Shown: positions 1 through 16,414 of the stretch, in pieces
Numbering within the stretch: position 1 is the stretch's first letter
How the letters are laid out: each line of letters starts with the position of its first letter
From: Gemmatimonadota bacterium
GTDB lineage: Bacteria > Gemmatimonadota > Gemmatimonadetes > Gemmatimonadales > GWC2-71-9
Length of the DNA stretch: 64,000 nt
Direction: 5' to 3'
Assembly: GCA_039588295.1 (NCBI GenBank)
Contig: JBDHAB010000009.1
Span: 1-64,000, forward strand
Translations under genes and position numbers: made by a program
The notes under the pieces: generated by a model
Told to the model about the DNA's origin: nothing
The model's input: the letters and a program-made list of their open reading frames with translations, nothing else
The model's database searches: none

Positions 1-9
1 TTCCCGGAG

Positions 10-738
10 GTGGATGGGTTGTATTACATGCGAGCACGGTGGTATGAGCCCGGGACCGGGCGGTTCTTGAGTGAGGATCCGATCGGGGGGATCAATCGTT
101 ACGTGTATGCCAGCGGAGACCCTGTGAATCTCGCTGATCCGACAGGACTAATAGATTGCCCCCCCGGGGAACACGTGACTTGGATTCTGGTGCAGGATGA
201 CGAAGGAGGCTCGAGCTGGGAACCGCGGTGCGTTAAGGGGGGGTCCGGCACTCCGGTGTTGGAACCGGTTCAGGTCGTAGCCCCCGCCCCTCTGTACTTC
301 CCATCGGTCTTCAGCGGTGGCTTCGGCAACCGAGGGCCACGTTGGACATTCGCGAGAGGCCCGAGTATCCCAGCAGGTTTCTTGTCGGGAAGCGCGGGGC
401 CTCCGTCCCAGCAGGACGTGGCGCAGCACGTCCGCACTCCCCAGCAGTGCTTCGACGAGAGCATCGCACCAGTTGCCAAGTTCATCCGCGGTTCTTGGGA
501 GGCGATCACCGGCGTGAGCGCCGTCGCAACTGTCGTGCGGTTCACCGGAGGTCTCACTTCGCGACGCGGGACTGTCTTAAGAAACTTCAAAGGCCGGCCG
601 GTGTTCGGCGGCGCGATGAGGGCCGTAGGTGGGTTCGCCTTTGACAGTACTGTGTGGCTCACCGCTGGTGTGGCGGGTCTCGCGTCTTCGTATCTTGCAG
701 CCACCTCGGTTATCTGCGATATCAACCCGAACTATTAG
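10..738 (+). CDS. RHS repeat-associated core protein, C-terminal part (gene probably starts upstream of the window); putative polymorphic toxin
   Basis: GLYYMRARWYEPGTGRFLSEDPIGG..NRYVYASGDPVNLADPTGL is the RHS core ending in the DPxG cleavage motif, followed by a ~195-aa variable tail. Confidence 0.9.
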   Translation: MDGLYYMRARWYEPGTGRFLSEDPIGGINRYVYASGDPVNLADPTGLIDCPPGEHVTWILVQDDEGGSSWEPRCVKGGSGTPVLEPVQVVAPAPLYFPSVFSGGFGNRGPRWTFARGPSIPAGFLSGSAGPPSQQDVAQHVRTPQQCFDESIAPVAKFIRGSWEAITGVSAVATVVRFTGGLTSRRGTVLRNFKGRPVFGGAMRAVGGFAFDSTVWLTAGVAGLASSYLAATSVICDINPNY

Positions 739-762
739 CATGAGGGAAGGAAGATAGGCTGA

Positions 763-1017
763 ATGACATCGAATCCGACTGGTACTCATCACAGTGGCGA
801 CGTTGAGGAGCTTCGGGAGCGACTAGCGCAAGCTGTGACCATCGCAATCGCGCTATTTCTTGCCAGCTTCGTTCTCGGAGCAGTTGCTGGGTGGGGTGCG
901 GGTCTGGTGGGCAGAAAGCCGCTTTCGGCTCTGGTAATGGTCGCGTCCGCGCTCATTGGTTTGGGAATCGTGATTTGGAGATACTACTTGGTGAGTCGGC
1001 CGATGCTTCGCGACTGA
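763..1017 (+). CDS. Small two-helix membrane protein, candidate RHS immunity protein
   Basis: 84 aa, two hydrophobic segments, directly downstream of the RHS tail. Confidence 0.55.
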   Translation: MTSNPTGTHHSGDVEELRERLAQAVTIAIALFLASFVLGAVAGWGAGLVGRKPLSALVMVASALIGLGIVIWRYYLVSRPMLRD

Positions 1018-1373
1018 AGATGACGTCCAAGGTGTAGATAATGCGCTCTGACGCGCCTATCTGCGCGGATCTGATGAGGGGCTCTGCGGATTCTGGGAAT
1101 TGGGGGGGTACTACGATGATCGCCGACGATCGCAGGTCCACGCCAAATAGCAGGAAACCAACGGAATAGCCGACTGTGATAGTCGGTGAGCGTCCAGAGC
1201 GGCGAACTCGTGGGGACTCGCAGTGATTGGGCGCGGCAGCGTAGCGCTGCGTGGGTTCCCGAACACCGGGGAGTGGTTGCGCACGACGCGGCAGGAATCC
1301 AGGCCAATGAGGAGCCGACAACCCACGGTCTTAGAGCAGTCGATTGGGGTTGACGGATTGTGACGTCGAGAGC

Positions 1374-1419
1374 TGGATAGTGTGACAAATCGTGCGGTCG
1401 ATCTTGGATAGTGTGACAA
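1374..1419. repeat. 15-bp direct repeat TGGATAGTGTGACAA (2 copies)
   Basis: Exact copies at 1374-1388 and 1405-1419; a third TGTGAC core at 1359-1364. Confidence 0.8.
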
Positions 1420-1705
1420 GATGTCGCGGTTTGGGCGTTTCTCGGGCCGCTCTCCAGGCGTGTGCCTTCAGCCGCTCGGCCACCTGTCCTGGGAATGCTA
1501 AGCGGTTGAAAAAAGACGAGATCGGGAAGCGGCGTCAAGCGGTGCGGCGGAGGGCCTTCCACGGGAGATCCGTGAGTCCGCGGCGGATTTCCGACGAACG
1601 CGCTGCCACACCGCAGCGGTGTGCTACCGCTCGATCAAATCGGCTCCGACACTGTGCACTGGTGGCAGCCGCCTCGCCGGTCGCCACCAGCCGCGGAGCG
1701 CAGAA

Positions 1706-2263
1706 CTACCTTCCAACCACTACCGCCCGAGACGGCATCACCACGTCGAGTGTGACGTCCCCGAAGTCCTGCTCAATAACGGTCAGCTCGTGGACCTGCA
1801 CCTCGAGTCCGGCGACGTAGTCTGCCGCCGCAACCTCCATCTCGATCGCGAACAGCACGTCGCTCTTCAACCCGTTGGGTGCCGCGCCCGCGGCCTTCAC
1901 CAACCCCGGCCCGGCGGTGAGATTGATCGCCCGGAGCACGCCATCATCTAACGTCGCTGCTTCGATCGGCTGGAGCTTTTCGGGATCGTACACCACATCC
2001 ACGAGATAGCCGGTCGGCGTGAGTGCGACGTCTACCGCTCGCACTTTGCCGGTCAGCGTGATGCGGGTGCCCGGGGTCGCAGCATCGTTGTCCACAGTGA
2101 GATAGACATTCACACCGGGTTTGAGAACGGCCTCCTCCGCGGATTCCCGTGGTCGCGTGGCCTCGTCGGTGCAGGCGCTCAAACCCGCGACAAGTACCAG
2201 GCCGACCGACAGGAACGCGGCGGTCACCAGCGAGTTCCTTCCCGGCTTTGCGTATCTAGACAT
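1706..2263 (-). CDS. Lipoprotein with cohesin-like beta-sandwich domain
   Basis: RBS GAGGAGGAG before ATG 2263; lipobox LSAC; cohesin-like pattern (VVYDPEKL...NLTAGPGLVKAAGAAPNG...LFAIEMEV). Confidence 0.65.
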   Translation of the reverse strand: MSRYAKPGRNSLVTAAFLSVGLVLVAGLSACTDEATRPRESAEEAVLKPGVNVYLTVDNDAATPGTRITLTGKVRAVDVALTPTGYLVDVVYDPEKLQPIEAATLDDGVLRAINLTAGPGLVKAAGAAPNGLKSDVLFAIEMEVAAADYVAGLEVQVHELTVIEQDFGDVTLDVVMPSRAVVVGR

Positions 2264-2316
2264 CTCTCCTCCTCTACTCCACCGGTGGCGAGACTCCATC
2301 TGAGGATGCGTCCGCA

Positions 2317-3159
2317 TCACGGTAGCTGACAGTTCTCCAATGCGTACTTGTCGATGCGATGGTAACTGGGCACGCCGATGCCGACGAGCCGGCGCAGGAT
2401 GTAGACGGCATCCATGCTGCTCACGGCAGCGTCACGGTCCACGTCACCGAGGTCGATGTCACACGTGCCGCAGATCGGCAGGGCCACGAGATGCCGGAGA
2501 ATCTGGACCGCATCGGCAACACCCACCGCCGCATCGCGTGTGACGTCGGCGAAGGCATACTCAGCCACGCCGATCCCCTCCGGTGGCGGCACCTCGAGAT
2601 CGGGCAGCAGATCCTCTGCCAGTTCTCCACTCAGCTCGGTGATGTACTTCTCCGGCAGGGATACGCAGTCACCAGGCTGGGCAGATGCCGGAAGAAAGAG
2701 GACCAGCGTGTCCAGCGTGACCTGCGGCACCCCCACGGCATCCGCCCGCGCCGCGACGCAGCGCACCCATTCATAGTGGTGATCCGGAAACGTCCCTCCT
2801 TGAACACAGCATCCTCCCCACTCGAACAGGCCTCCGAAGTCTCCTTCCTGCAAGATGGGGGGTGACGGGTGCGGGGTACCCATGTCATCGGGCATGACCA
2901 TTGAGTCTCGAATGCCGGCGACCGGTAGATTGGTTGTGCCATCCCTGCTGTAGAGGATCTGTGGGAGCCAGAAATACTCACCGCGGATGGCGCGCGTATC
3001 CGCGACGTCGGGCCACGCGGCGTTGCTGATGCCCTCTCTGACGAACCGTGCGACGTACGGCTCCGTCTGCGACCAGAGTTCGGCCGGCAGCGACGCTACC
3101 AGCAACGCGAGCGCTCCCGCGAGGCCGCAGCACCTCGCGACCGATTGTTTCCCATACAT
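2317..3159 (-). CDS. Secreted protein with C-terminal dockerin-like domain
   Basis: RBS AGGAGG before ATG 3159; signal peptide; duplicated F-hand repeats ADVTRDAAVGVADAVQILRHLV and GDVDRDAAVSSMDAVYILRRLV. Confidence 0.8.
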   Translation of the reverse strand: MYGKQSVARCCGLAGALALLVASLPAELWSQTEPYVARFVREGISNAAWPDVADTRAIRGEYFWLPQILYSRDGTTNLPVAGIRDSMVMPDDMGTPHPSPPILQEGDFGGLFEWGGCCVQGGTFPDHHYEWVRCVAARADAVGVPQVTLDTLVLFLPASAQPGDCVSLPEKYITELSGELAEDLLPDLEVPPPEGIGVAEYAFADVTRDAAVGVADAVQILRHLVALPICGTCDIDLGDVDRDAAVSSMDAVYILRRLVGIGVPSYHRIDKYALENCQLP

Positions 3160-3260
3160 GATTCCCTCCTGAGCTGCGAAAGTCACAAGTCCCATTCTCC
3201 GACGGCGCATCAATCGTCCGTCGGCCGTTTCGCTTTCTCGGGACGCTCGCCGACGCTCGC

Positions 3261-4550
3261 TCACGGCGTTACCACGCACACGGTAACCGGCTCGGTTATG
3301 ATGAGCGCGCGAGCCAAGAGATCGATGGCCTCAAACGTCACCGGATCGATGGCCTTCAGTTCCGTGAGGGTCGGGACGAGCTGGGTGCATCCCGTGGCCA
3401 GCCCTTCCACCGAGAAGGTGAGCGCCGTGAGCACGTCGCCCGTCAAACCGGACGCGGAGACGCCCGAGAACTTGAGCGTGCCGGCGGGCGTCTCGTTCGA
3501 TAGGAACAGGTCCCAGATTGTCCCCGCCGCATCATCGCGATAGTCGAGCAGCGAGGCACTCCAGGTCACGTCACCGACCGCCGAAGTCACCGGCTCCGGG
3601 ATCTGGGTCACATCCAGCTGCAGTGTGATGTCGGACGTGCCGCCCACCGCCGGACCTTCGGGAGCGGCGAGCGTGCGTACGACAACGGCCGGCTTCACCG
3701 TCACGGCCACGCAACCGTCGGCCTCGGGCCCGGAGCTACTCGCGCACACGGTGCTCGTCCCCTCGGCCATGCCTGTGACCTCGCCCGTCCCGGGATCCAC
3801 CTCGGCAATGGACGGCGCCGAGCTCGACCAGGTCACCGTCGGGCCGCTGACCGCCAGCCCGACCCGGTTGCGGACGACGGCGCTCAGTGTCTCGGTCAGC
3901 CCGATCCCTACCTCCGGGTCCACCGGACTCACGTCCACCCATCCATCGTCGTACTGGATCGGAGCCCAGACGTACACCGTGAACTCGAACGTCACGACGG
4001 TCGGGTCCACGTCCCACGTCCAGGTCTTTGCCTGCGACACCTCACCGGTGGCAAGGATCTCATCGTATTGGTGATAGGGCTGATTGCTGCCGGTGAACGT
4101 TCCGGTTCCCGAAGCGTTCGACACGGTAACCGTGCCGGTCCCGCTCGTGACGCTTGGACCAGTGTGGAAGAACACTCGCACACCGTCCGCATGGAGCGAT
4201 GAGCCATCCGTGGTGCCCAGCGCCTGACCGATCAGATTCTGCACGGTCACATCAGCCTGGAATACCTGACTGCCGTCATAGCTGACGTTTGAGGATGTGA
4301 GCTGTACGTAACTGCCCTGCCCACCGAGTGTGATCGAGAGCGAGAGGCCAGACCCGCTCTGTCCATGCGATGAGCCACATGTCAGGGTCCCGGCTTCCAC
4401 CCCTCCACGACACGCAATGCCGATTGCCACGAGGTCGGTCTCCACGACTGTGGGCGCCGATGGGAGCTGGTCGTCGCCGCACCCACTCGCGATGAGAAGC
4501 GCGATAGTGGCTAGGGCAATCCGAAATCGAGACATCGCTCTGCGCTCCAT
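3261..4550 (-). CDS. Surface lipoprotein: conserved N-terminal beta domain, Big_2 Ig-like domain and C-terminal cohesin-like domain
   Basis: Lipobox ASGC; VTWSSSAPSIAEVDPGTGEVTG (Big_2); C-terminal VTWSASLLDY...GTLKFSGVSASGLTGDVLTALTF; N-domain clearly paralogous to the 5605-6609 protein. Confidence 0.75.
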   Translation of the reverse strand: MERRAMSRFRIALATIALLIASGCGDDQLPSAPTVVETDLVAIGIACRGGVEAGTLTCGSSHGQSGSGLSLSITLGGQGSYVQLTSSNVSYDGSQVFQADVTVQNLIGQALGTTDGSSLHADGVRVFFHTGPSVTSGTGTVTVSNASGTGTFTGSNQPYHQYDEILATGEVSQAKTWTWDVDPTVVTFEFTVYVWAPIQYDDGWVDVSPVDPEVGIGLTETLSAVVRNRVGLAVSGPTVTWSSSAPSIAEVDPGTGEVTGMAEGTSTVCASSSGPEADGCVAVTVKPAVVVRTLAAPEGPAVGGTSDITLQLDVTQIPEPVTSAVGDVTWSASLLDYRDDAAGTIWDLFLSNETPAGTLKFSGVSASGLTGDVLTALTFSVEGLATGCTQLVPTLTELKAIDPVTFEAIDLLARALIITEPVTVCVVTP

Positions 4551-4634
4551 TGTTGCCTCCGTGGCCGTGGTGAAACGGCCGACAACTTGCCTACCCTAGT
4601 GCTCGATAACCGCGGAGCGGTTGGTCACACGTTC

Positions 4635-4814
4635 CTAGAACACGGTCGATCCGGTCCCCGGATCTCCCACCCCGGGAATCGGACTGCCGGTCTGCAGCGT
4701 GAGATCCGTGAGCTTCGGGAGATCCACGACCTCAGGAGTCAACCAAGGCTTGCGTGGTCGGTTGGGTTCTGCGGTCTCGGTTTGCCGCGCGCGGCGATCG
4801 TCGTTCGAAGACAT
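4635..4814 (-). CDS. 59-aa RiPP precursor-like peptide (lasso-type leader), missing from the ORF track
   Basis: Manual translation MSSNDDRRARQTETAEPNRPRKPWLTPEVVDLPKLTDLTLQTGSPIPGVGDPGTGSTVF; GGGAG 6 nt before ATG; WxxPxV leader motif and Gly/Pro-rich core. Confidence 0.7.
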   Translation of the reverse strand: MSSNDDRRARQTETAEPNRPRKPWLTPEVVDLPKLTDLTLQTGSPIPGVGDPGTGSTVF

Positions 4815-4846
4815 GACAAACTCCCAGGATCCTGTTACAAGGATCG

Positions 4847-4928
4847 GCCAGGGCCTTGCGGTCTCGTCGTCGGTGGGCGTCCGAATGGAGGGCGTCGCTC
4901 TGGCGACGGGGCCGTCGAGGCCACCGGC
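4847..4928. promoter_or_regulatory. Conserved palindromic leader element, copy A
   Basis: Shares GGTCTCGTCGTCGG, two GGCGTC, GGCGRCGGGGCC and CACCGRCG with 6639-6722; lies ~30 nt upstream of ATG 4814. Confidence 0.6.
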
Positions 4929-5028
4929 GCTGATGGTGCAGTTCCTATGCTAGTGTTGCTTCGCTATCACCCCAAGAACATGAACTGTTCGATTCGCATG
5001 GTGCCGTTCATTGCCAGCTCATACCACG

Positions 5029-6609
5029 TTACGGATTCGCGAACGCAAACGTGACCGGGCAGTAGGAGGAGAACACCCCGGGCGGCCACTCATACTCGTA
5101 CGCCCGGTACGCCAGGACCGCCGGTCCGTACGCCGCATCTGAGAAGAGACTGATGTATGTGCAGACCTCGTTGGATTGGGCAGCCCGGTATCCGCTGACG
5201 TTGATGCGCTCGGTCACCGTGTGACTCTCGCCTTCGCTCACCGAGAAGGCAGCGGTCGTCACGTCGTACATCGGATTGCTCGGGGTGCCCAAGATCGTGG
5301 ATGTCACCTCGACCGTACCCGCCCCCCCGGCGACCTCGATTCGCACGGTATCAACGTCGGACTCCCCCTGACCGTCGGTCGCCCTCAGCGTGATGGTGTG
5401 GCCGCCAACCATGACGTCGAAGTCTTTGTCGTACTCGATCGCCGTCAGTTCGGGAAGGATGCCGAATTCTCGCCATGTGGTGGTGACGAGGTCCCACTCG
5501 ATGGCGAGGTGGCTCAGGTCATTCCGCGTGAAGGAGGTCCCTGTGCCAATTTGACCGTCGAGGTCCGACTCCCAGACAAGCGACGCTCCGGTCAGAGGAC
5601 CGTCCTACGGGTCGGAACCGCTCCCCTGGAAGCTGATCGCGTCGCCTTCGCCAAAGCTGTCCCAGTCCGATGGCGAGCTAATCGTCGCCGTCGGCTCCGC
5701 GTTGGCCGGGGCTCCTTGCCATGTTCCCGAGCAGGTGCTCCCGGACCTGGTTAACTGCCAGGTGCCCGAGGCCTCGTCACCGAGCGTGGTGAATGTGCCC
5801 CCAAAGACGAAGCGGGTCCCCATGGGATCCGTGTGGTCGATGTTGAATTGACGATCGGTGATCGGCCACGTGCTGCCGAACCCCACCGACCCCGAAAAGG
5901 GCGCCGAGCCGCACATGTAGTTATCGAAGTGGAACCAGATAAGGGTGATGGCACTGCTCTGCGCGTTGACGGTGAAGTCCACGGTGCCGAAGGCCGGGGT
6001 GGGCGTGGCCTCCCATTCCCCCGGGACCACCGGGATATCGGTGCTGACGTACACGGAGAATGCGAACGTCTCGACCGTGGGCGATACACTCCACAGCCAC
6101 GTCTTCGCTGCCGAGACGTCGTTGGTCTGCAAGATCTCGCTGTACTCGAAGTAGGGCTGCACGGCCCCCGTAAAAGTCCCGGTTCCATCTGCATTGGCCA
6201 CCGTCACCGTGCCGGTCCCGCTCGTCACATCGGGCCCCGTGTGGAAGAACACCTTGATCCCCGTGACCGTGGTGCCGTCTGGCGTCCCCATCGGTTGCGC
6301 AATCAGGTTCTGGACGGTGACATCAGCCTGAAACACGTCCGAGCCGTCGTAACTCACATTGGTCGAGGCCAGCTGCACATAGGTCCCTTGACCTCCCACG
6401 ACAACCGCGAGCTGCAGCCCCGCTGGCGTACCCAAGGTTGGCTGTCCGCAGGCGACCGTCCCGGCATCAATGTTGGCTCGGCACTGGACCACCTGTGGAG
6501 CCGGTGGATCGAGGACATCGAGGGGCGCCGTCGGTGCGTCACCGTCCCAGCAGGCTGCGGGGGTAAGCAGTGCCAGTGCGGCGCCGCTGAGCGCGAGACG
6601 GTTTCGCAT
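5029..6609 (-). pseudogene. Surface lipoprotein (paralogous N-domain plus PKD/Ig-like domain) interrupted by an in-frame TAG at 5605-5607
   Basis: Frame continues ...GSGSDP*DGPLTGASLVWESDLDGQIGTGTSFTRNDLS...VGGHTITLRATD into the 5029-5412 ORF; lipobox PAAC. Confidence 0.75.
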
Positions 6610-6638
6610 GAGGTTACCTCGAATCCTGCGTACGCGAT

Positions 6639-6722
6639 GCCGTCGAAGGACTGGGGTCTCGTCGTCGGGCCGGCGTCAAACTGCGGCGTCAGTCGGGCGG
6701 CGGGGCCATGGTCACCGACGGC
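6639..6722. promoter_or_regulatory. Conserved palindromic leader element, copy B
   Basis: Similar to 4847-4928; outer stem GCCGTCG/CGACGGC; ~30 nt upstream of ATG 6609. Confidence 0.6.
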
Positions 6723-6953
6723 TGGTTTCGTTCTAAAAACGCCACGAGTATGCTCGGCGGGACATGGGTTCGCAAGTGTAGCACCACCAACACATTACGA
6801 GCTTTTCACTTCAGTATGGTTTGAGACGCCGCATGCCGAGATCAGGCGGCGCGAATCCGCGCGCACGCCGTTCGCATTGTCCGAATCGCTAGGTTGAAAA
6901 GTGTGGGCCTCAGCGCGCGGGTGCGCGTGGTGTTGAGACGAACGGGAGGGAGC

Positions 6954-7967
6954 ATGCCGACGTGGTCACGATCTCCGGGATTCCTGAGCATGATTCGCTT
7001 CATCCGCGATTGGCGCTCACTCGTCAGGATGCACTTTCTCCACGCTGCCCTCGAGTCCGGTTTACTGCAGGCGCTGAGGACACCGGTATCGAAGGACGAG
7101 CTGTTGCGCCAGCTCGAGGTGAAGCGGCCGGAGCTGCTGGACGCCCTGCTCGATGTGGGACTCGCGGTCGGTGAGCTGTCATGCAAGGGTGGACGCTACG
7201 CGGTGAAGGGACGACGGGCGCGATCGCTCATCGGCGATCTGGGTGACCCGCTCGCGGCGCTCGTTCAGGCCAACGTCACCTGCTACAACTCGGTGTATCG
7301 GAACGTGACGGACCGGCTGCGCGGCGCGCCGCCGGGTGAATACCTCGAGGAGATCGGCGACCTGGTCGCCAGAGTTTCCAAGCTGGCAGAACCGTACGTC
7401 CGCAAGTTCATCAAACGCGCTGTGGCGGGCCGAGGACGGATGCGGATACTCGACGTGGGTTGCGGGTCGGGTGTGTATCTCAAGGCCGCCCATGAAGTCA
7501 ATTCGGAGGCCACGGGTGTTGGCATCGACATGGACGGAGCGGTGGTGGAGCAGGCACGACGCAACCTGGAGCGCTGGCGTTTGACAGACAAATTCGAGGT
7601 GATGGTCGCAGATATTCAGGTGCCACCCGGCGATCTCGCGGGCCCGTTCGACTTGATCACGCTGTACAATGTCATCTACTACATCCCGCTGGGAGAGAGA
7701 GTGAGCCTCTTCCGTTCGCTCGGGTCGTTGCTCACCTCGGGCAGCACACTCGCGATCGTGACCAGCACCCAGAGCCAGGGGCGGGACCTGTTCGCGGCGA
7801 ATCTAAATGTCGCCACGAGCTCCACGGTGGGAAACACGCCGCTCCCGGCACTCGGCGAGCTCACGGACCAACTCGCAGGGGCCGGCTTCACCGACGTCAC
7901 AACGACGCGACTGGTAGCCAGAAGTACGTTCTACGGAATTCGAGCCTCCTCGGTCTCACGGCGTTGA
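6954..7967 (+). CDS. Class I SAM-dependent methyltransferase with N-terminal dimerisation/wHTH domain
   Basis: ILDVGCGSG motif I; RBS GGAGGGAG before ATG 6954. Confidence 0.85.
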   Translation: MPTWSRSPGFLSMIRFIRDWRSLVRMHFLHAALESGLLQALRTPVSKDELLRQLEVKRPELLDALLDVGLAVGELSCKGGRYAVKGRRARSLIGDLGDPLAALVQANVTCYNSVYRNVTDRLRGAPPGEYLEEIGDLVARVSKLAEPYVRKFIKRAVAGRGRMRILDVGCGSGVYLKAAHEVNSEATGVGIDMDGAVVEQARRNLERWRLTDKFEVMVADIQVPPGDLAGPFDLITLYNVIYYIPLGERVSLFRSLGSLLTSGSTLAIVTSTQSQGRDLFAANLNVATSSTVGNTPLPALGELTDQLAGAGFTDVTTTRLVARSTFYGIRASSVSRR

Positions 7968-8046
7968 TCGGGATGGCGTGCATTGCCTATTCTACAGACG
8001 CCCTCTCCCGAGGAGTGTAACGACGTCTGATCGCGCCGAACGCCCA

Positions 8047-8745
8047 GTGAGCGACGGCACACGCCCGCGTGGCCGCATTTCGTTCGCCGCGGTACCGTCT
8101 GAAACCACGTGGTACCGACCGCTCTACAAACCACTGGTGTTCCTCTCGAACGTCGCGCTGGCAGCTTGGATCTATCCGTGCTGGCGTACGGTTCGGATCC
8201 ACTGGACGCCGTCCCTCGATGCGTTGGCGCGACTCACACGGGACACGCAGCGGCCGCTGGTGTTCTACTCGTGGCATGCCTACGAGCCGGTCACCCTGTG
8301 CGCGTTCCGCGACGTTCCACCTGGACTGAGGCCGACCGGCATTGGGCACGATGGCCTCCTGTCGCGCATGCTGCAGCAGGCCACGGCGTGGTTCGGGTTC
8401 CGGGTGTGGATCTATCGCCGTAAGTCACCGATCCGGCCGAAGCAACAGATCATCGACATGGTTCGCACTCGCGGGTGCCACATCGGGTTGTTCGCCGATG
8501 CCGGCGGACCCTACGGTCGCGTGAAGCCCGGACTGCCGGAGATCGCCAGGGCGACCCACGCCTGGCTCGTGCCGCTCATCGTACGCGGTCGGCCGATCAT
8601 CAAGCTCAGACGACCATGGCACTACCAGTTCCCGTTGCCGTTTGGCACGCTCCGGGCCCACCATGGGGAGCCCATTGACGGGCGGGCCGCCACGGTGGAC
8701 GGGTGCCAGGAAGCCTTGGACGAGCTCGAAAGCCTGGCGCGCTGA
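8047..8745 (+). CDS. DUF374-like lysophospholipid acyltransferase family protein (start uncertain)
   Basis: FYSWH, ADAGGPYGRVKPG and PLPFG motifs. Confidence 0.7.
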   Translation: MSDGTRPRGRISFAAVPSETTWYRPLYKPLVFLSNVALAAWIYPCWRTVRIHWTPSLDALARLTRDTQRPLVFYSWHAYEPVTLCAFRDVPPGLRPTGIGHDGLLSRMLQQATAWFGFRVWIYRRKSPIRPKQQIIDMVRTRGCHIGLFADAGGPYGRVKPGLPEIARATHAWLVPLIVRGRPIIKLRRPWHYQFPLPFGTLRAHHGEPIDGRAATVDGCQEALDELESLAR

Positions 8746-9099
8746 TGCCCGAGCGGCGAGGAAAGCCCAAGGGCTGGCAGCGGTTGCCAGCACGAGGCCC
8801 GTAGCCATCTGGTGGTGCGGCGTCATCAGCCAAGTCGCCCGGCCGGCAAAAGAAACGACCCCGCAGTTGCCTGCGGGGCCGCTGCGCCGGGAACGTTGGA
8901 GCCGCTGCTCAGAGCTTGACACCCCTCCGCCGACGCGCGTCCAAAGTATGAGATATCGGCAGCCAGGTCAAATCCTGGCGGGGCTTGGACTTGGCCTCGG
9001 CCCGGGTGCGATGTCCAGAATGCCGGACTTTCGGGAGTGCCCACACGACGAGCCCGTCCCATTTTGGGACGGCTCGTTGTTGCCCGGGTTGGGCCCGTC

Positions 9100-10584
9100 T
9101 CAGGATGCCTTCTCGATGGCGTCCTTCCTGATCAGCGCGTATCCCACGCTGTTGAAGTTGTAGCTGGTGAGATCCTGGAAGATCTGTCGGGCTTCGGCCT
9201 CACTGCCCGCGCCCTCGAGCGCGAGCGCGAGATGGTACTTGGTGTAGATGTTGGCGGGGTTGGCCTGCCGGTAGTGCTCGACGGCAGCGGTGTAGTCACC
9301 CTGGAGCAGGCTCACCATTCCCAGGAGGTCGTGGGCCGCCTCGTTGCGGCGCGGATTGGCGTCGGTTTCCAAGAGGCTCATGAACTCGCTCGCCTTCTCC
9401 GTCGCCGCGGCATAGTCGCCCCGGCGCGCGGCGAGCACGCCGTCCCAATAAGCGATGTTGGCTTGCTGTCCTCGACTGAAGGCCTCGGTCCCAACCCGCT
9501 CCGCCTGCTCCATGAGCAACGGCTTACGGCGCTCCAGCGCACTCTCGGCAGCGTCGAGCATGTTGTGATGCAGCGCGATCTGGGCCGCACTCGTCAAGGC
9601 AAAGATGGTCTGCCCGGTCGGGCCGGGGAGGTCCATGGTGCCGATCGCATCCGCCAGCCCGATCAACTCATCGATCGCGGCCTGCGGGTTGCCTTCGTGC
9701 ACACCGACAAAGGCTCGATACACGGCAAAGGCGGCCTTCTGGTTGCCCACACCCATTGCAATGGAGGAGTCGTAGTCGGCCCGTGCCTCGTCGTAGTTCC
9801 CCAAGAATGAGTTCACGTGACCGCGCTGCTGGAGCGGCGAAGCGTTGCCCGGGTCCAGCTCTGCCGCCCGGGTGTACGACGCTCGAGCCTGTTCCAACTG
9901 ATTGAGGGCGCGGTACGCGTCTCCCATCAGGTCGTGGCTGTTGGCCTCATTCGGTTCCAGTTCGACCACCTTGCTCATGTACTCCTCCACCTTCGCAAGG
10001 TCGACGGGGTCGTTGAACAGGAACGAGTTGCCCAGCTGCATGTAGGCGGGCGCGAAATTGGGAGCCAACTCGGTGGCCGTCATCATCGAGGCCCGAGCCG
10101 CCGTGTTGTCGTTGAGTCCCGTCTGGATGCCGGCGAGCGTGAGCCAGGCCCGAGGGCTCTCGGGTACCACCTCCACCAGCCGCTGGGCCGATTGGAGCTG
10201 ACCCTGGGCATCGTTGTCCAAGCCCTTGCTGGTGATCTCGATCAGCAGTTGTTCGGCTTCGGAGGCCCCCGGGGCTTTCTCCTGTGCGAGCCGCAGGTTG
10301 GCCATGAACTGGTCGGTCGAGGTGGCGGTGTTGGCCAAGTTCCAGTAGCCGAGTGCAAAGTCCGGGTCGGATTCGACCGCCCACTCGAAGTGCTCCTGGG
10401 CTTCGAAGAAACGGACCATGTCCATCGCGTGCTGCCCCTGTAGGAACCGGTCCCTGGCCTCCTCGGAGCTGGTGGTCATGGGGATTCCCATCACCACGTC
10501 GGCGTCGGGCTGGCCCTCTTGGCCCGCACAGGCGGTGATCAGCACCAAGACCGCGAGTCGGACCGATGAACGCACGGATTGCAT
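9100..10584 (-). CDS. TPR-repeat lipoprotein
   Basis: Lipobox ITAC; IPMTTSSEEAR start; many TPR helices. Confidence 0.85.
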   Translation of the reverse strand: MQSVRSSVRLAVLVLITACAGQEGQPDADVVMGIPMTTSSEEARDRFLQGQHAMDMVRFFEAQEHFEWAVESDPDFALGYWNLANTATSTDQFMANLRLAQEKAPGASEAEQLLIEITSKGLDNDAQGQLQSAQRLVEVVPESPRAWLTLAGIQTGLNDNTAARASMMTATELAPNFAPAYMQLGNSFLFNDPVDLAKVEEYMSKVVELEPNEANSHDLMGDAYRALNQLEQARASYTRAAELDPGNASPLQQRGHVNSFLGNYDEARADYDSSIAMGVGNQKAAFAVYRAFVGVHEGNPQAAIDELIGLADAIGTMDLPGPTGQTIFALTSAAQIALHHNMLDAAESALERRKPLLMEQAERVGTEAFSRGQQANIAYWDGVLAARRGDYAAATEKASEFMSLLETDANPRRNEAAHDLLGMVSLLQGDYTAAVEHYRQANPANIYTKYHLALALEGAGSEAEARQIFQDLTSYNFNSVGYALIRKDAIEKAS

Positions 10585-10728
10585 GGAACCTCCTGATGGA
10601 ATGAGCGCCGACCGTGTCGGGCAGCGCCACCGACACATGGCTTTCGCAAGCAGGTGAAGATACTGGCGGGACCATCGCCTGCAAGCGTTCGAGCCTCGCG
10701 CCCCTCCAAGACGTTGGGCTGAGTCAGA

Positions 10729-15266: not shown

Positions 15267-15539
15267 ATGGGGCGGCAGAGTCGGTTCCACGTTGAGCAGA
15301 TCGTGAAGATCCTGCGTGAGTACGAGACGAGTGGGCTGCCCGTGAGCACGTTCTTACGGCGCTACGGGGTATCGCGGGAGACGTTCTACCGCTGGCGGCG
15401 CAAGTATGGGGGCCTGACGGAGAGTGATGCATCACGGCTGAAGCGGCTCGAGCGGGAGAATGCCCGGTTGAAGATGCTCGTGGCGGAGCGGGATCTCGAG
15501 GTGGAGGTGTTGCGGGAGATCACGCGAAAAAAATCGTGA
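15267..15539 (+). CDS. IS3 transposase OrfA (HTH)
   Basis: YGVSRETFYRWRRKYGG...RLKRLERENARLK; A7 slippery run at 15527-15533. Confidence 0.92.
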   Translation: MGRQSRFHVEQIVKILREYETSGLPVSTFLRRYGVSRETFYRWRRKYGGLTESDASRLKRLERENARLKMLVAERDLEVEVLREITRKKS

Positions 15540-16414
15540 GCGCGCCGGCCAGACGGGCGCTGGTCGGGATGCTGAGGCAGCGCGGCATCGCGGTCCAGCG
15601 GGCCTGCGTGCTGGTGTCGGTGGCCCGTTCCGCCGTGGGCTATGTGTCGCGGCAGGCGGCGAAGGATGCGCCGTTGCAGCGTCTGCTCCGCCGGTTTGCC
15701 CAGCGGCATCCGCGGCATGGGTATCGGCGCGCCTGGGTATGGCTGCGGCGGAAGGGTCATCGGGTGAATCGCAAGCGGGTGTACCGGCTCTGGTGCCAAG
15801 CCGGCCTGGCGTTGCCGCGGCGTCGGGCGGCCCGGCGGCGCTGGCGCGGCCCGCGGGTGGATCCGGTGGCCCGCGCCCCGACGGCGGTGTGGGCGTGCGA
15901 CATCCTCCACACGCGCTGTGGGCCTGGGCAGGTGGTGCGGTGTTTGTCGGTGGTGGACGAGTACACGCGCGAGTGTTTGGCGATCGAGGTGGCGAGCTCC
16001 CTGCCGGCAGACCGTGTCGTGGGGTGTCTGGCGCGCCTGGTGGAGCAGCATGGGGCGCCGCAGTACCTGCGCACGGACAATGGCACGGAGTTTCTGGCGC
16101 GCCGCACGCAGCAGTGGCTACGCCACCACGGCATTCAGGCAGCGCGGATCGAGCCCGGTAAGCCGTGGCAGAATGGGGTGGTGGAGAGCTTTCACAGTCG
16201 GTTGCGCGACGAGTGTGTGGATCGCGAGTGGTTTGGCAGTGTGGCCGAGGCGGCGGTCATCATCGAGGCGTATCGGCAGAGCTACAACGCGACCCGGCCG
16301 CACAGCAGTCTGGGCTACCGCACCCCCGCCGAGGTACGGTCGGAACATGACACGATGGTAGACACCGGCGTTCCGCAGCCAGGACGCCAGGAAATGGTCA
16401 GTGTCTCACGCTAG
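15536..16414 (+). CDS. IS3 transposase OrfB (DDE integrase core)
   Basis: WACD, VVDEYTRECL, TDNGTEF, PGKPWQNGVVESF, YNATRPHSSLGY. Confidence 0.95.
   Translation: MSAPARRALVGMLRQRGIAVQRACVLVSVARSAVGYVSRQAAKDAPLQRLLRRFAQRHPRHGYRRAWVWLRRKGHRVNRKRVYRLWCQAGLALPRRRAARRRWRGPRVDPVARAPTAVWACDILHTRCGPGQVVRCLSVVDEYTRECLAIEVASSLPADRVVGCLARLVEQHGAPQYLRTDNGTEFLARRTQQWLRHHGIQAARIEPGKPWQNGVVESFHSRLRDECVDREWFGSVAEAAVIIEAYRQSYNATRPHSSLGYRTPAEVRSEHDTMVDTGVPQPGRQEMVSVSR

Follow-up and report, generated by a model that had tools for sequence, protein, structure and literature searches.

The present data suggest that a 59-aa open reading frame near the beginning of a Gemmatimonadota contig probably encodes the precursor of a phosphopeptide modified by a radical-SAM enzyme in a pathway without a cyclase; genes on other contigs would supply the maturation enzymes, and the peptide would work with a neighbouring lipoprotein. 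The stretch analysed (the window, 64,000 nucleotides) is the beginning of contig C9 of a genome of 4.5 Mb that is 96% complete. Judged by its sequence, the open reading frame is a genuine gene: the preliminary description had singled it out together with a ribosome-binding site, and both are borne out, the translation being as quoted and GGGAG standing 6 nt before the ATG (Table 1). The gene is taken as real because it has paralogues and homologues and because synonymous exceeds non-synonymous change. A six-frame phmmer search of its own genome returned four paralogues, on C7, C2, C20 and C57 (E 4e-19 to 3e-12), and nothing further below E 0.15; every conserved residue is kept in all five copies, and each of the five is flanked by a gene of one lipoprotein family. 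Over 35 distinct precursor DNA copies pS was 0.65 and pN 0.23, and when only the columns left free by the search pattern were counted the values were 0.66 and 0.39. Some 70 nt of non-coding DNA upstream of the precursors are alike in C9, C20, C57 and the loci L029 and L030; this stretch, for which an Rfam search gave no match, could possibly be an operator or an RNA element.

Table 1. Features of the precursor locus (positions in the window) and of the enzyme genes on contigs C2 and C35 of the same genome.
Feature	Position	Strand	Basis or remark
Precursor peptide gene P0001, 59 aa	4635..4814	-	translation, paralogues, profile matches, pS/pN
Shine-Dalgarno-like GGGAG, 6 nt ahead of ATG	4821..4825	-	sequence
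Predicted leader, residues 1-40, N-terminus variable	4695..4814	-	Trp-anchored alignment; cleavage site predicted
W24-x-x-P27-x-V29, RRE motif in leader	4745-4728	-	
Thr39, leader residue -2	4700-4698	-	
Predicted 19-aa core, Gln41-Phe59	4638..4694	-	predicted
Thr42, likely kinase site	4691-4689	-	predicted
Conserved non-coding stretch upstream of precursor	4858..4928	-	five aligned copies
Upstream lipoprotein, same family as downstream lipoprotein	5029..6609	-	interrupted by in-frame TAG at 5605-5607
Downstream lipoprotein	3261..4550	-	signal peptide with lipobox-like Cys24, shared domain, Big_2 domain
Shared beta-sandwich domain (~165 aa) of downstream lipoprotein	about 4445-3942	-	
Secreted protein, weak dockerin-like C-terminus below Pfam cut-off	2317..3279	-	outside conserved cassette
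Lipoprotein, weak cohesin-like domain below Pfam cut-off	1706..2320	-	similar gene behind family lipoprotein in L029
Radical-SAM enzyme	C2:176761-177828		
B2 protease	C2:177717-178211		
Stand-alone RRE	C35:25573-25857		
HprK-like kinase	C35:25871-26833		

The homologue search with neighbourhood analysis that had been proposed for this peptide recovered a family in which the WxxP motif and the leader Thr are conserved. Fourteen of 15 related loci from public genomes hold true homologues, all in Gemmatimonadota, the remaining one being a chance match. The profile, built from 17 precursor copies, matches 28 of 401 genomes of the phylum; when it was used to score 8000 candidates, at least 915 protein clusters at 90% identity were found at E<=0.01, and clustering at 50% identity gave 305. 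No Pfam or NCBIfam family matched the precursor, and an Atlas look-up with the homologue P0004 returned unnamed clusters only. The leader motif for RRE binding, (Y/W)xxPx(L/V/I), is kept almost throughout (Trp in 286, Pro in 284 and Leu, Val or Ile in 283 of 287 homologues), counts that derive from sequences found with the profile of the same family, in which kin are not independent. The Trp-anchored alignment leaves out four of 291 rows, namely P0122, P0145 and P0254, in which the leader is missing, and P0139, a chimera of peptide and radical SAM. A Thr lies 15 residues past the Trp in 274 of 279 homologues, which is leader position -2 at the canonical spacing, and a Ser or Thr lies 18 residues past it in 278 of 279; the consensus reads WxxPx(L/V/I)x(E/D)LPxLTDLTL. 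According to the available portions of the sources, Bsf leaders carry YxxPxL at -17/-14/-12 and Thr at -2 (PMC10368454), and LppA and PbaA have their aromatic residue at -16 and -15 (PMC13381572).

If the Trp is set at -17 by this canonical spacing, Thr39 falls at -2 and the core runs from Gln41 to Phe59, so that by analogy cleavage most likely occurs after ...LTL (Leu40), which would make Asp51 core residue 11. The preliminary description had cut after ...QTG to obtain S1...D8, or alternatively G1...D9; these registers would move the Trp to -20 or -19, and the likely site lies three to four residues closer to the N-terminus. One or the other of the two registers has its acid in 112 of 239 parsed homologues, and under the canonical cleavage Asp or Glu at core positions 7-9, as a lasso core would have it, is found in 38 of 245. 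Of 245 stand-alone homologues, 244 carry Ser or Thr as core residue 2, which in four homologues is the sole Ser or Thr of the core. In their accessible text, two studies describe kinases of similar reach: BsfK phosphorylates core Ser3 with the help of the RRE (PMC10368454), and LppK likewise acts on core Ser3 (PMC13381572). Because both kinases act there and the hydroxyl at core 2 is conserved, Thr42 is likely the kinase site by analogy. However, LppK does not accept Thr in place of Ser3 (PMC13381572, same portion), yet Thr is what most homologues have here. The most conserved core residues are Ile46 and Gly48 (core 6 and 8; Ile or Val in 282 and Gly in 282 of 287), and what stays constant is Ile/Val-x-Gly together with the hydrophobic character of the end, where Phe is replaceable; core length varies widely, and the first residue is Gln, Leu, Ala or Val. 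Core cysteines number none (121) or two (5), never one, among 126 parsed representatives. The pairs connect the IxG and TVF ends (P0223, P0224, P0244, P0263 and P0290; also P0123 and P0141), a pattern that suggests a core shaped as a hairpin and reaching an oxidising compartment.

Complete loci in relatives consist, in order, of the precursor, a radical-SAM gene, one or more lipoprotein genes, and genes for a TolB-like protein, an RRE, a B2 protease and an HprK-like kinase, with a nucleotidyltransferase gene on the opposite strand; near-complete cassettes were found at L067, L072, L073, L075-L078, L120 and L121. It had been stated that the window holds no cyclase, B protease or PqqD gene, and a Pfam scan of the 11 open reading frames of positions 1-10638 found none; whole-genome searches for cyclase, B2 and RRE gave no match on contig C9. 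The suggestion of an RRE-dependent precursor matured in trans and tied to surface proteins is supported by the leader motif, by the lipoprotein linkage and by enzyme genes elsewhere in the genome, where the cassette is split: the radical SAM and B2 lie at C2:176761-178211, with the C2 paralogue 4 kb away, and the RRE, the kinase and the nucleotidyltransferase at C35:25573-27990. Four of these are orthologues of the genes of L023 (RRE E 2e-17, kinase 4e-62, nucleotidyltransferase 4e-42, radical SAM 1e-129). The B2 protein scores above the NF033537 cut-off with its TCLYR and AHAW motifs intact, the kinase keeps its GK and SDD motifs, and the RRE is above the PF05402 cut-off, its best NCBIfam lasso B1 score being 59 against 70 bits.

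The linkage is also seen among genomes of the phylum. A radical-SAM orthologue (E<=1e-40) occurs in 28 of 401 genomes, 26 of them shared with the peptide set, and the kinase profile at E<=1e-10 matches 27 of the 28 peptide genomes (23 at <=1e-40) as against 3 of 20 controls negative for peptide and lipoprotein, these weakly (1e-29 to 1e-33), the genomes behind all such co-occurrence counts being related and hence not independent. The two radical-SAM genomes outside the peptide set carry a divergent clade, and for one of them a divergent precursor was found. The gene immediately following 43 distinct precursors in the fetched loci encodes a radical SAM in 18 cases, a lipoprotein domain in 19 (7 of them fused) and a TolB-like protein in 2, with none in the other 4; a radical SAM or lipoprotein domain lies within 4.5 kb of 41 of the 43. 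Only 16 of the 28 peptide genomes have a close B2 orthologue (E<=1e-20), and the otherwise complete cassettes L023, L074 (a single-contig genome) and L082 lack one; with B2 so patchy, leader removal may be optional or performed by another protease. Divergent relatives (L116:8872-11850, L117:9748-12735, L157:118-3603 and L119:9280-10175) have the same type of leader with other cores: in G171 and G271 a long core ending in IPGSTGFFP beside a radical SAM of 37-40% identity, and in G111 and G363 (two tandem open reading frames) two-Cys cores.

The precursor had been described as heading an operon of cohesin/dockerin surface proteins. It stands instead between two genes of one lipoprotein family; the link to surface proteins is upheld, the immediate neighbour being a family lipoprotein with a Big_2 domain, and the dockerin and cohesin labels fit the next two genes, each below the Pfam cut-off (E 0.011 and 0.016). 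The TAG within the upstream lipoprotein gene is a mutation or an assembly error. The genome has nine genes of this family, two of which (on C13 and C38) have no adjoining precursor. Among the 401 genomes the lipoprotein domain occurs in 37, including 25 of the 28 peptide genomes and 12 without a match to the peptide profile. In 3 of those 12 it lies beside kinase, nucleotidyltransferase and RRE genes, and neither precursor nor B2 nor radical SAM was detected in the vicinity, an arrangement visible in the lipoprotein-kinase-nucleotidyltransferase-RRE operons of L146, L147 and L151. The family is unstudied. Its shared N-terminal domain is modelled confidently as all-beta (pLDDT 89) with two invariant cysteines; there was no PDB sequence match under E 0.08 and no Foldseek match at E<=0.001, and the best Z was 7.7, so that homology to a close sequence or fold in the PDB assigns it no function. 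At L033:5136-8408 (G000:C20:18135-21407), L026 and L078, pairs of secreted proteins that carry adhesin-like repeats come after the family lipoproteins.

In two genomes the precursor and the lipoprotein are one polypeptide. Seven genes, four in tandem in G293 and three in G102, are in-frame fusions, every precursor copy there being fused; the order is leader, core ending in STVF, hydrophobic stretch, lipobox-like Cys and lipoprotein domain, and in G293 the enzyme genes lie downstream. Of 25 longer database hits, 19 share this build, with an intact leader and core before a lipoprotein signal peptide. Since the fused copies conserve the core while the N-terminus drifts, the substrate of the enzymes in these genomes would have to be a lipoprotein signal peptide. 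Read-through of the precursor stop codon into the lipoprotein was considered and rejected: in the stand-alone cases the lipoprotein lies in frame 0, 1 or 2 in 6, 4 and 7 instances (counted by eye), and all three stop codons are used. Elsewhere in the window, the contig opens at positions 1-738 with what looks like the C-terminus of an RHS repeat-associated core protein, which gave no Pfam match; a small membrane open reading frame lies behind it at 763-1017, and we take the two to resemble a polymorphic toxin-immunity pair. Two overlapping open reading frames at 15267-16414 resemble an IS3-family transposase pair, to judge from their translation.

The radical-SAM enzyme combines CxxxCxxC with five invariant C-terminal cysteines (C233, C252, C253, C307 and C310) in 28 of 28 rows, so that one would be left over if they ligate a single auxiliary cluster. 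It is of RiPP type in that a CxxxCxxC radical SAM with auxiliary-cluster cysteines is genetically tied to a short precursor. Its model (pLDDT 89) is structurally closest to BlsE (7vob, E 4e-14, TM 0.66), a sugar-nucleoside decarboxylase, and then to SkfB and PqqE. Against EpeE only the SAM-binding start aligns (profile 6-86, E 1e-4); the substrates of EpeE and PoyD are preferentially beta-branched residues.

These observations allow a model of maturation. The stand-alone RRE would bind W24xxP27xV29 in the leader and the HprK-like kinase would, quite probably, phosphorylate Thr42, core residue 2. The nucleotidyltransferase encoded on the opposite strand of C35 may plausibly then decorate the Thr42 phosphate, in the manner of the pseudomycoidin nucleotidyltransferase, which adds a hexose to phosphate in the accessible part of its description (PMC8498205). 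For the radical chemistry and the function of the product we infer a scheme in which the radical SAM might tentatively be assigned hydrogen abstraction at Ile46-x-Gly48, the likeliest outcome being epimerisation of Ile46 in which the spare Cys would donate the hydrogen, as EpeE and PoyD use a Cys in the portion of the source available (PMC8326336). Cleavage after Leu40 by the B2 protease, a step we hold with the same fair degree of confidence as the phosphorylation, would release the linear 19-mer Gln41-Phe59, and no macrolactam would be formed. The core could perhaps fold as a hairpin in which the IxG and TVF ends touch, leave the cytoplasm and serve as dedicated partner of the lipoprotein family, a step held a little less firmly than the decoration of the phosphate.

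An alternate scenario, which we consider unlikely, is that the radical SAM acts on a sugar or nucleotide attached to phospho-Thr42 by decarboxylation, oxidation or epimerisation, with the Gly-rich core as a carrier only. BlsE is the top fold match and third sequence match, core length varies widely, no reactive side chain is common to all cores (the STVIP/STVVP class has other residues in place of Phe), and the 37-40% identical enzyme of G171 and G271 serves a much longer and different core. However, the core keeps Ile/Val and Gly at positions 6 and 8 in nearly all homologues, IPG recurs in the divergent cores, and the peptide enzymes SkfB and PqqE score nearly as high as BlsE. Somewhat less probable still is a C-C or C-O crosslink by which the radical SAM would close the hairpin from the IxG end to the TVF end, as a macrocycle replacing the lasso ring. 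Natural Cys pairs at both ends imply contact, and a cyclase has been exchanged for a radical SAM; however, the Cys-pair variant of L168 lies directly ahead of a radical-SAM gene, and the shortest cores leave few residues between the ends. As this single Cys-pair locus recovered keeps the radical SAM, a disulfide in place of a radical-SAM link is unsupported, and an obligatory aryl crosslink at the C-terminal Phe was rejected, the Phe being absent from 34 of 126 parsed cores, so that such a crosslink cannot be general.

It is improbable that the window copy is a passenger, duplicated with the lipoprotein genes and no longer processed in its own genome. The machinery is spread over two contigs, the upstream lipoprotein gene is interrupted, and G109 retains the peptide and the lipoprotein while searches for radical SAM, kinase and B2 gave no match there; however, the five copies keep all conserved residues, all enzymes are present with intact motifs, and the open reading frame has its ribosome-binding site. 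Least of all survives the lasso product first proposed, with an S1-D8 or G1-D9 ring closed in trans by an asparagine-synthetase-like protein of the same genome: the WxxPxV leader, the lasso-type RRE, B2 and four AsnB-like genes, one without the N-terminal Cys (C159:14920), would fit it, but the likely cleavage site lies too early, the ring acid is unconserved (the C20 copy has none and the C2 copy has Asn), no AsnB-like gene occurs in 51 loci (some overlapping), none of the 28 peptide genomes reaches the lasso cyclase cut-off NF033535 (G039, G102 and G293 are without any match), the best of the four proteins from the genome's own cyclase search scores 299 against 525, and the AsnB-like genes of C159 have a YxxP precursor of their own, all of which makes it very improbable indeed. 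The cluster on C159 (L010:8383-18747) is a second RRE-dependent one, with a 44-aa YxxPxV precursor ending rich in Trp (C159:14537-14403), an RRE, two AsnB-like genes (one without the N-terminal Cys), an HprK-like kinase, a nucleotidyltransferase, two DUF455 ferritin-like genes, a third gene and a membrane protein. Its YxxP beside the WxxP of the family studied here echoes the Y/W discrimination described in the accessible part of PMC13381572.

What survives is the other option first raised, a new class of peptides associated with surface assemblies, and the precursor is likely a member of a class of modified peptides not yet described. No description of the cassette was found in the openly readable main texts of the literature, though a supplementary table, such as that of RRE-Finder, may list it. 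The RiPP family is large (at least 915 protein clusters), uniform and apparently undescribed, in a mostly uncultured phylum, and it re-uses the lasso leader module with a radical-SAM enzyme. Since the substrate can now be named, along with a likely cleavage site and a likely target residue for the kinase, five small genes become directly testable in E. coli, and the system gives a handle on the unexplained nucleotidyltransferases of paeninodin and LPP clusters. The fusions of precursor and signal peptide suggest RiPP chemistry applied to protein export. A bolder proposal, which we think doubtful, is that the RiPP product is a working part of a surface protein system and not a free metabolite, each lipoprotein having its own hairpin peptide, phosphorylated and modified by the radical SAM. 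If so, the peptide would come from the adjoining gene or, when fused, lie within the lipoprotein's own signal peptide, and RiPP enzymes would edit a Sec/lipoprotein signal peptide, licensing export, anchoring or assembly of a surface protein. Lasso clusters have been reported in 29 MAGs (PMC11316326), and some of the lasso calls in genome surveys of Gemmatimonadota may represent this radical-SAM phosphopeptide system.

Known systems share parts of the cassette, here compared as far as the available portions of the respective papers extend. The phosphorylated lasso peptides of the Bsf type from Bradymonadales (PMC10368454) are likewise Gram-negative and have a discrete RRE (B1), a B2 cysteine peptidase, a kinase, an N gene in several clusters, the leader motif at -17/-14/-12 and RRE-assisted phosphorylation near the core N-terminus; in contrast, the present family has no cyclase and no conserved ring acid, its core begins with Gln, Leu, Ala or Val, and it adds the radical SAM, the TolB-like protein and a dedicated lipoprotein family. 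The paeninodin and pseudomycoidin lasso clusters (PMC8498205, PMC13381572) have the WxxP leader, B1, B2, the HprK-like kinase and the nucleotidyltransferase in common with it; however, they modify a C-terminal Ser and are cyclised, whereas here the conserved hydroxyl belongs to core residue 2, the peptide ends in hydrophobic residues and the cyclase is lacking. EpeE (YydG) and PoyD (PMC8326336) are radical-SAM epimerases with a conserved extra cysteine, but their systems lack a kinase, a lipoprotein partner and a leader module of the lasso type, and only the SAM-binding region aligns. The SynChlorMet and GeoRSP models stayed below their NCBIfam cut-offs (ScmF 99 against 400, GeoRSP 65 against 400), as did those of the HPr-rel-A cassette (HprK_rel_A 28 against 200, PqqD_rel_X 27 against 35). 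RRE-Finder, in the part available, mentions lasso-type RREs beside radical-SAM enzymes without a cyclase in general terms. The linear polyphosphorylated peptides (LPP) of Bacillota (PMC13381572) are also cyclase-less, with a lasso-like leader, a discrete RRE, an HprK kinase acting on core Ser3, an NTP transferase and a linear product, as predicted here; the combination that marks them, discrete RRE, HprK-like kinase and NTP transferase without a cyclase, is found here as well. However, LPP pathways employ an SpI-type peptidase together with an MsbA-like exporter, and the LPP leader is of the YxxP type, its consensus YxxPxVLxHQxIxFETxxS not being matched by that of this family; B2 fills the peptidase slot in the cassettes, and no conserved SpI-type peptidase or MsbA-like gene was noticed among the gene calls of the loci. 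The main text of the LPP paper (PMC13381572) makes no mention of radical SAM, lipoprotein or Gemmatimonadota. The family is not lasso, as cyclase and ring acid fail, and not LPP, as the leader consensus fails; it resembles the Bsf, paeninodin and LPP phosphopeptide pathways and is a member of none.
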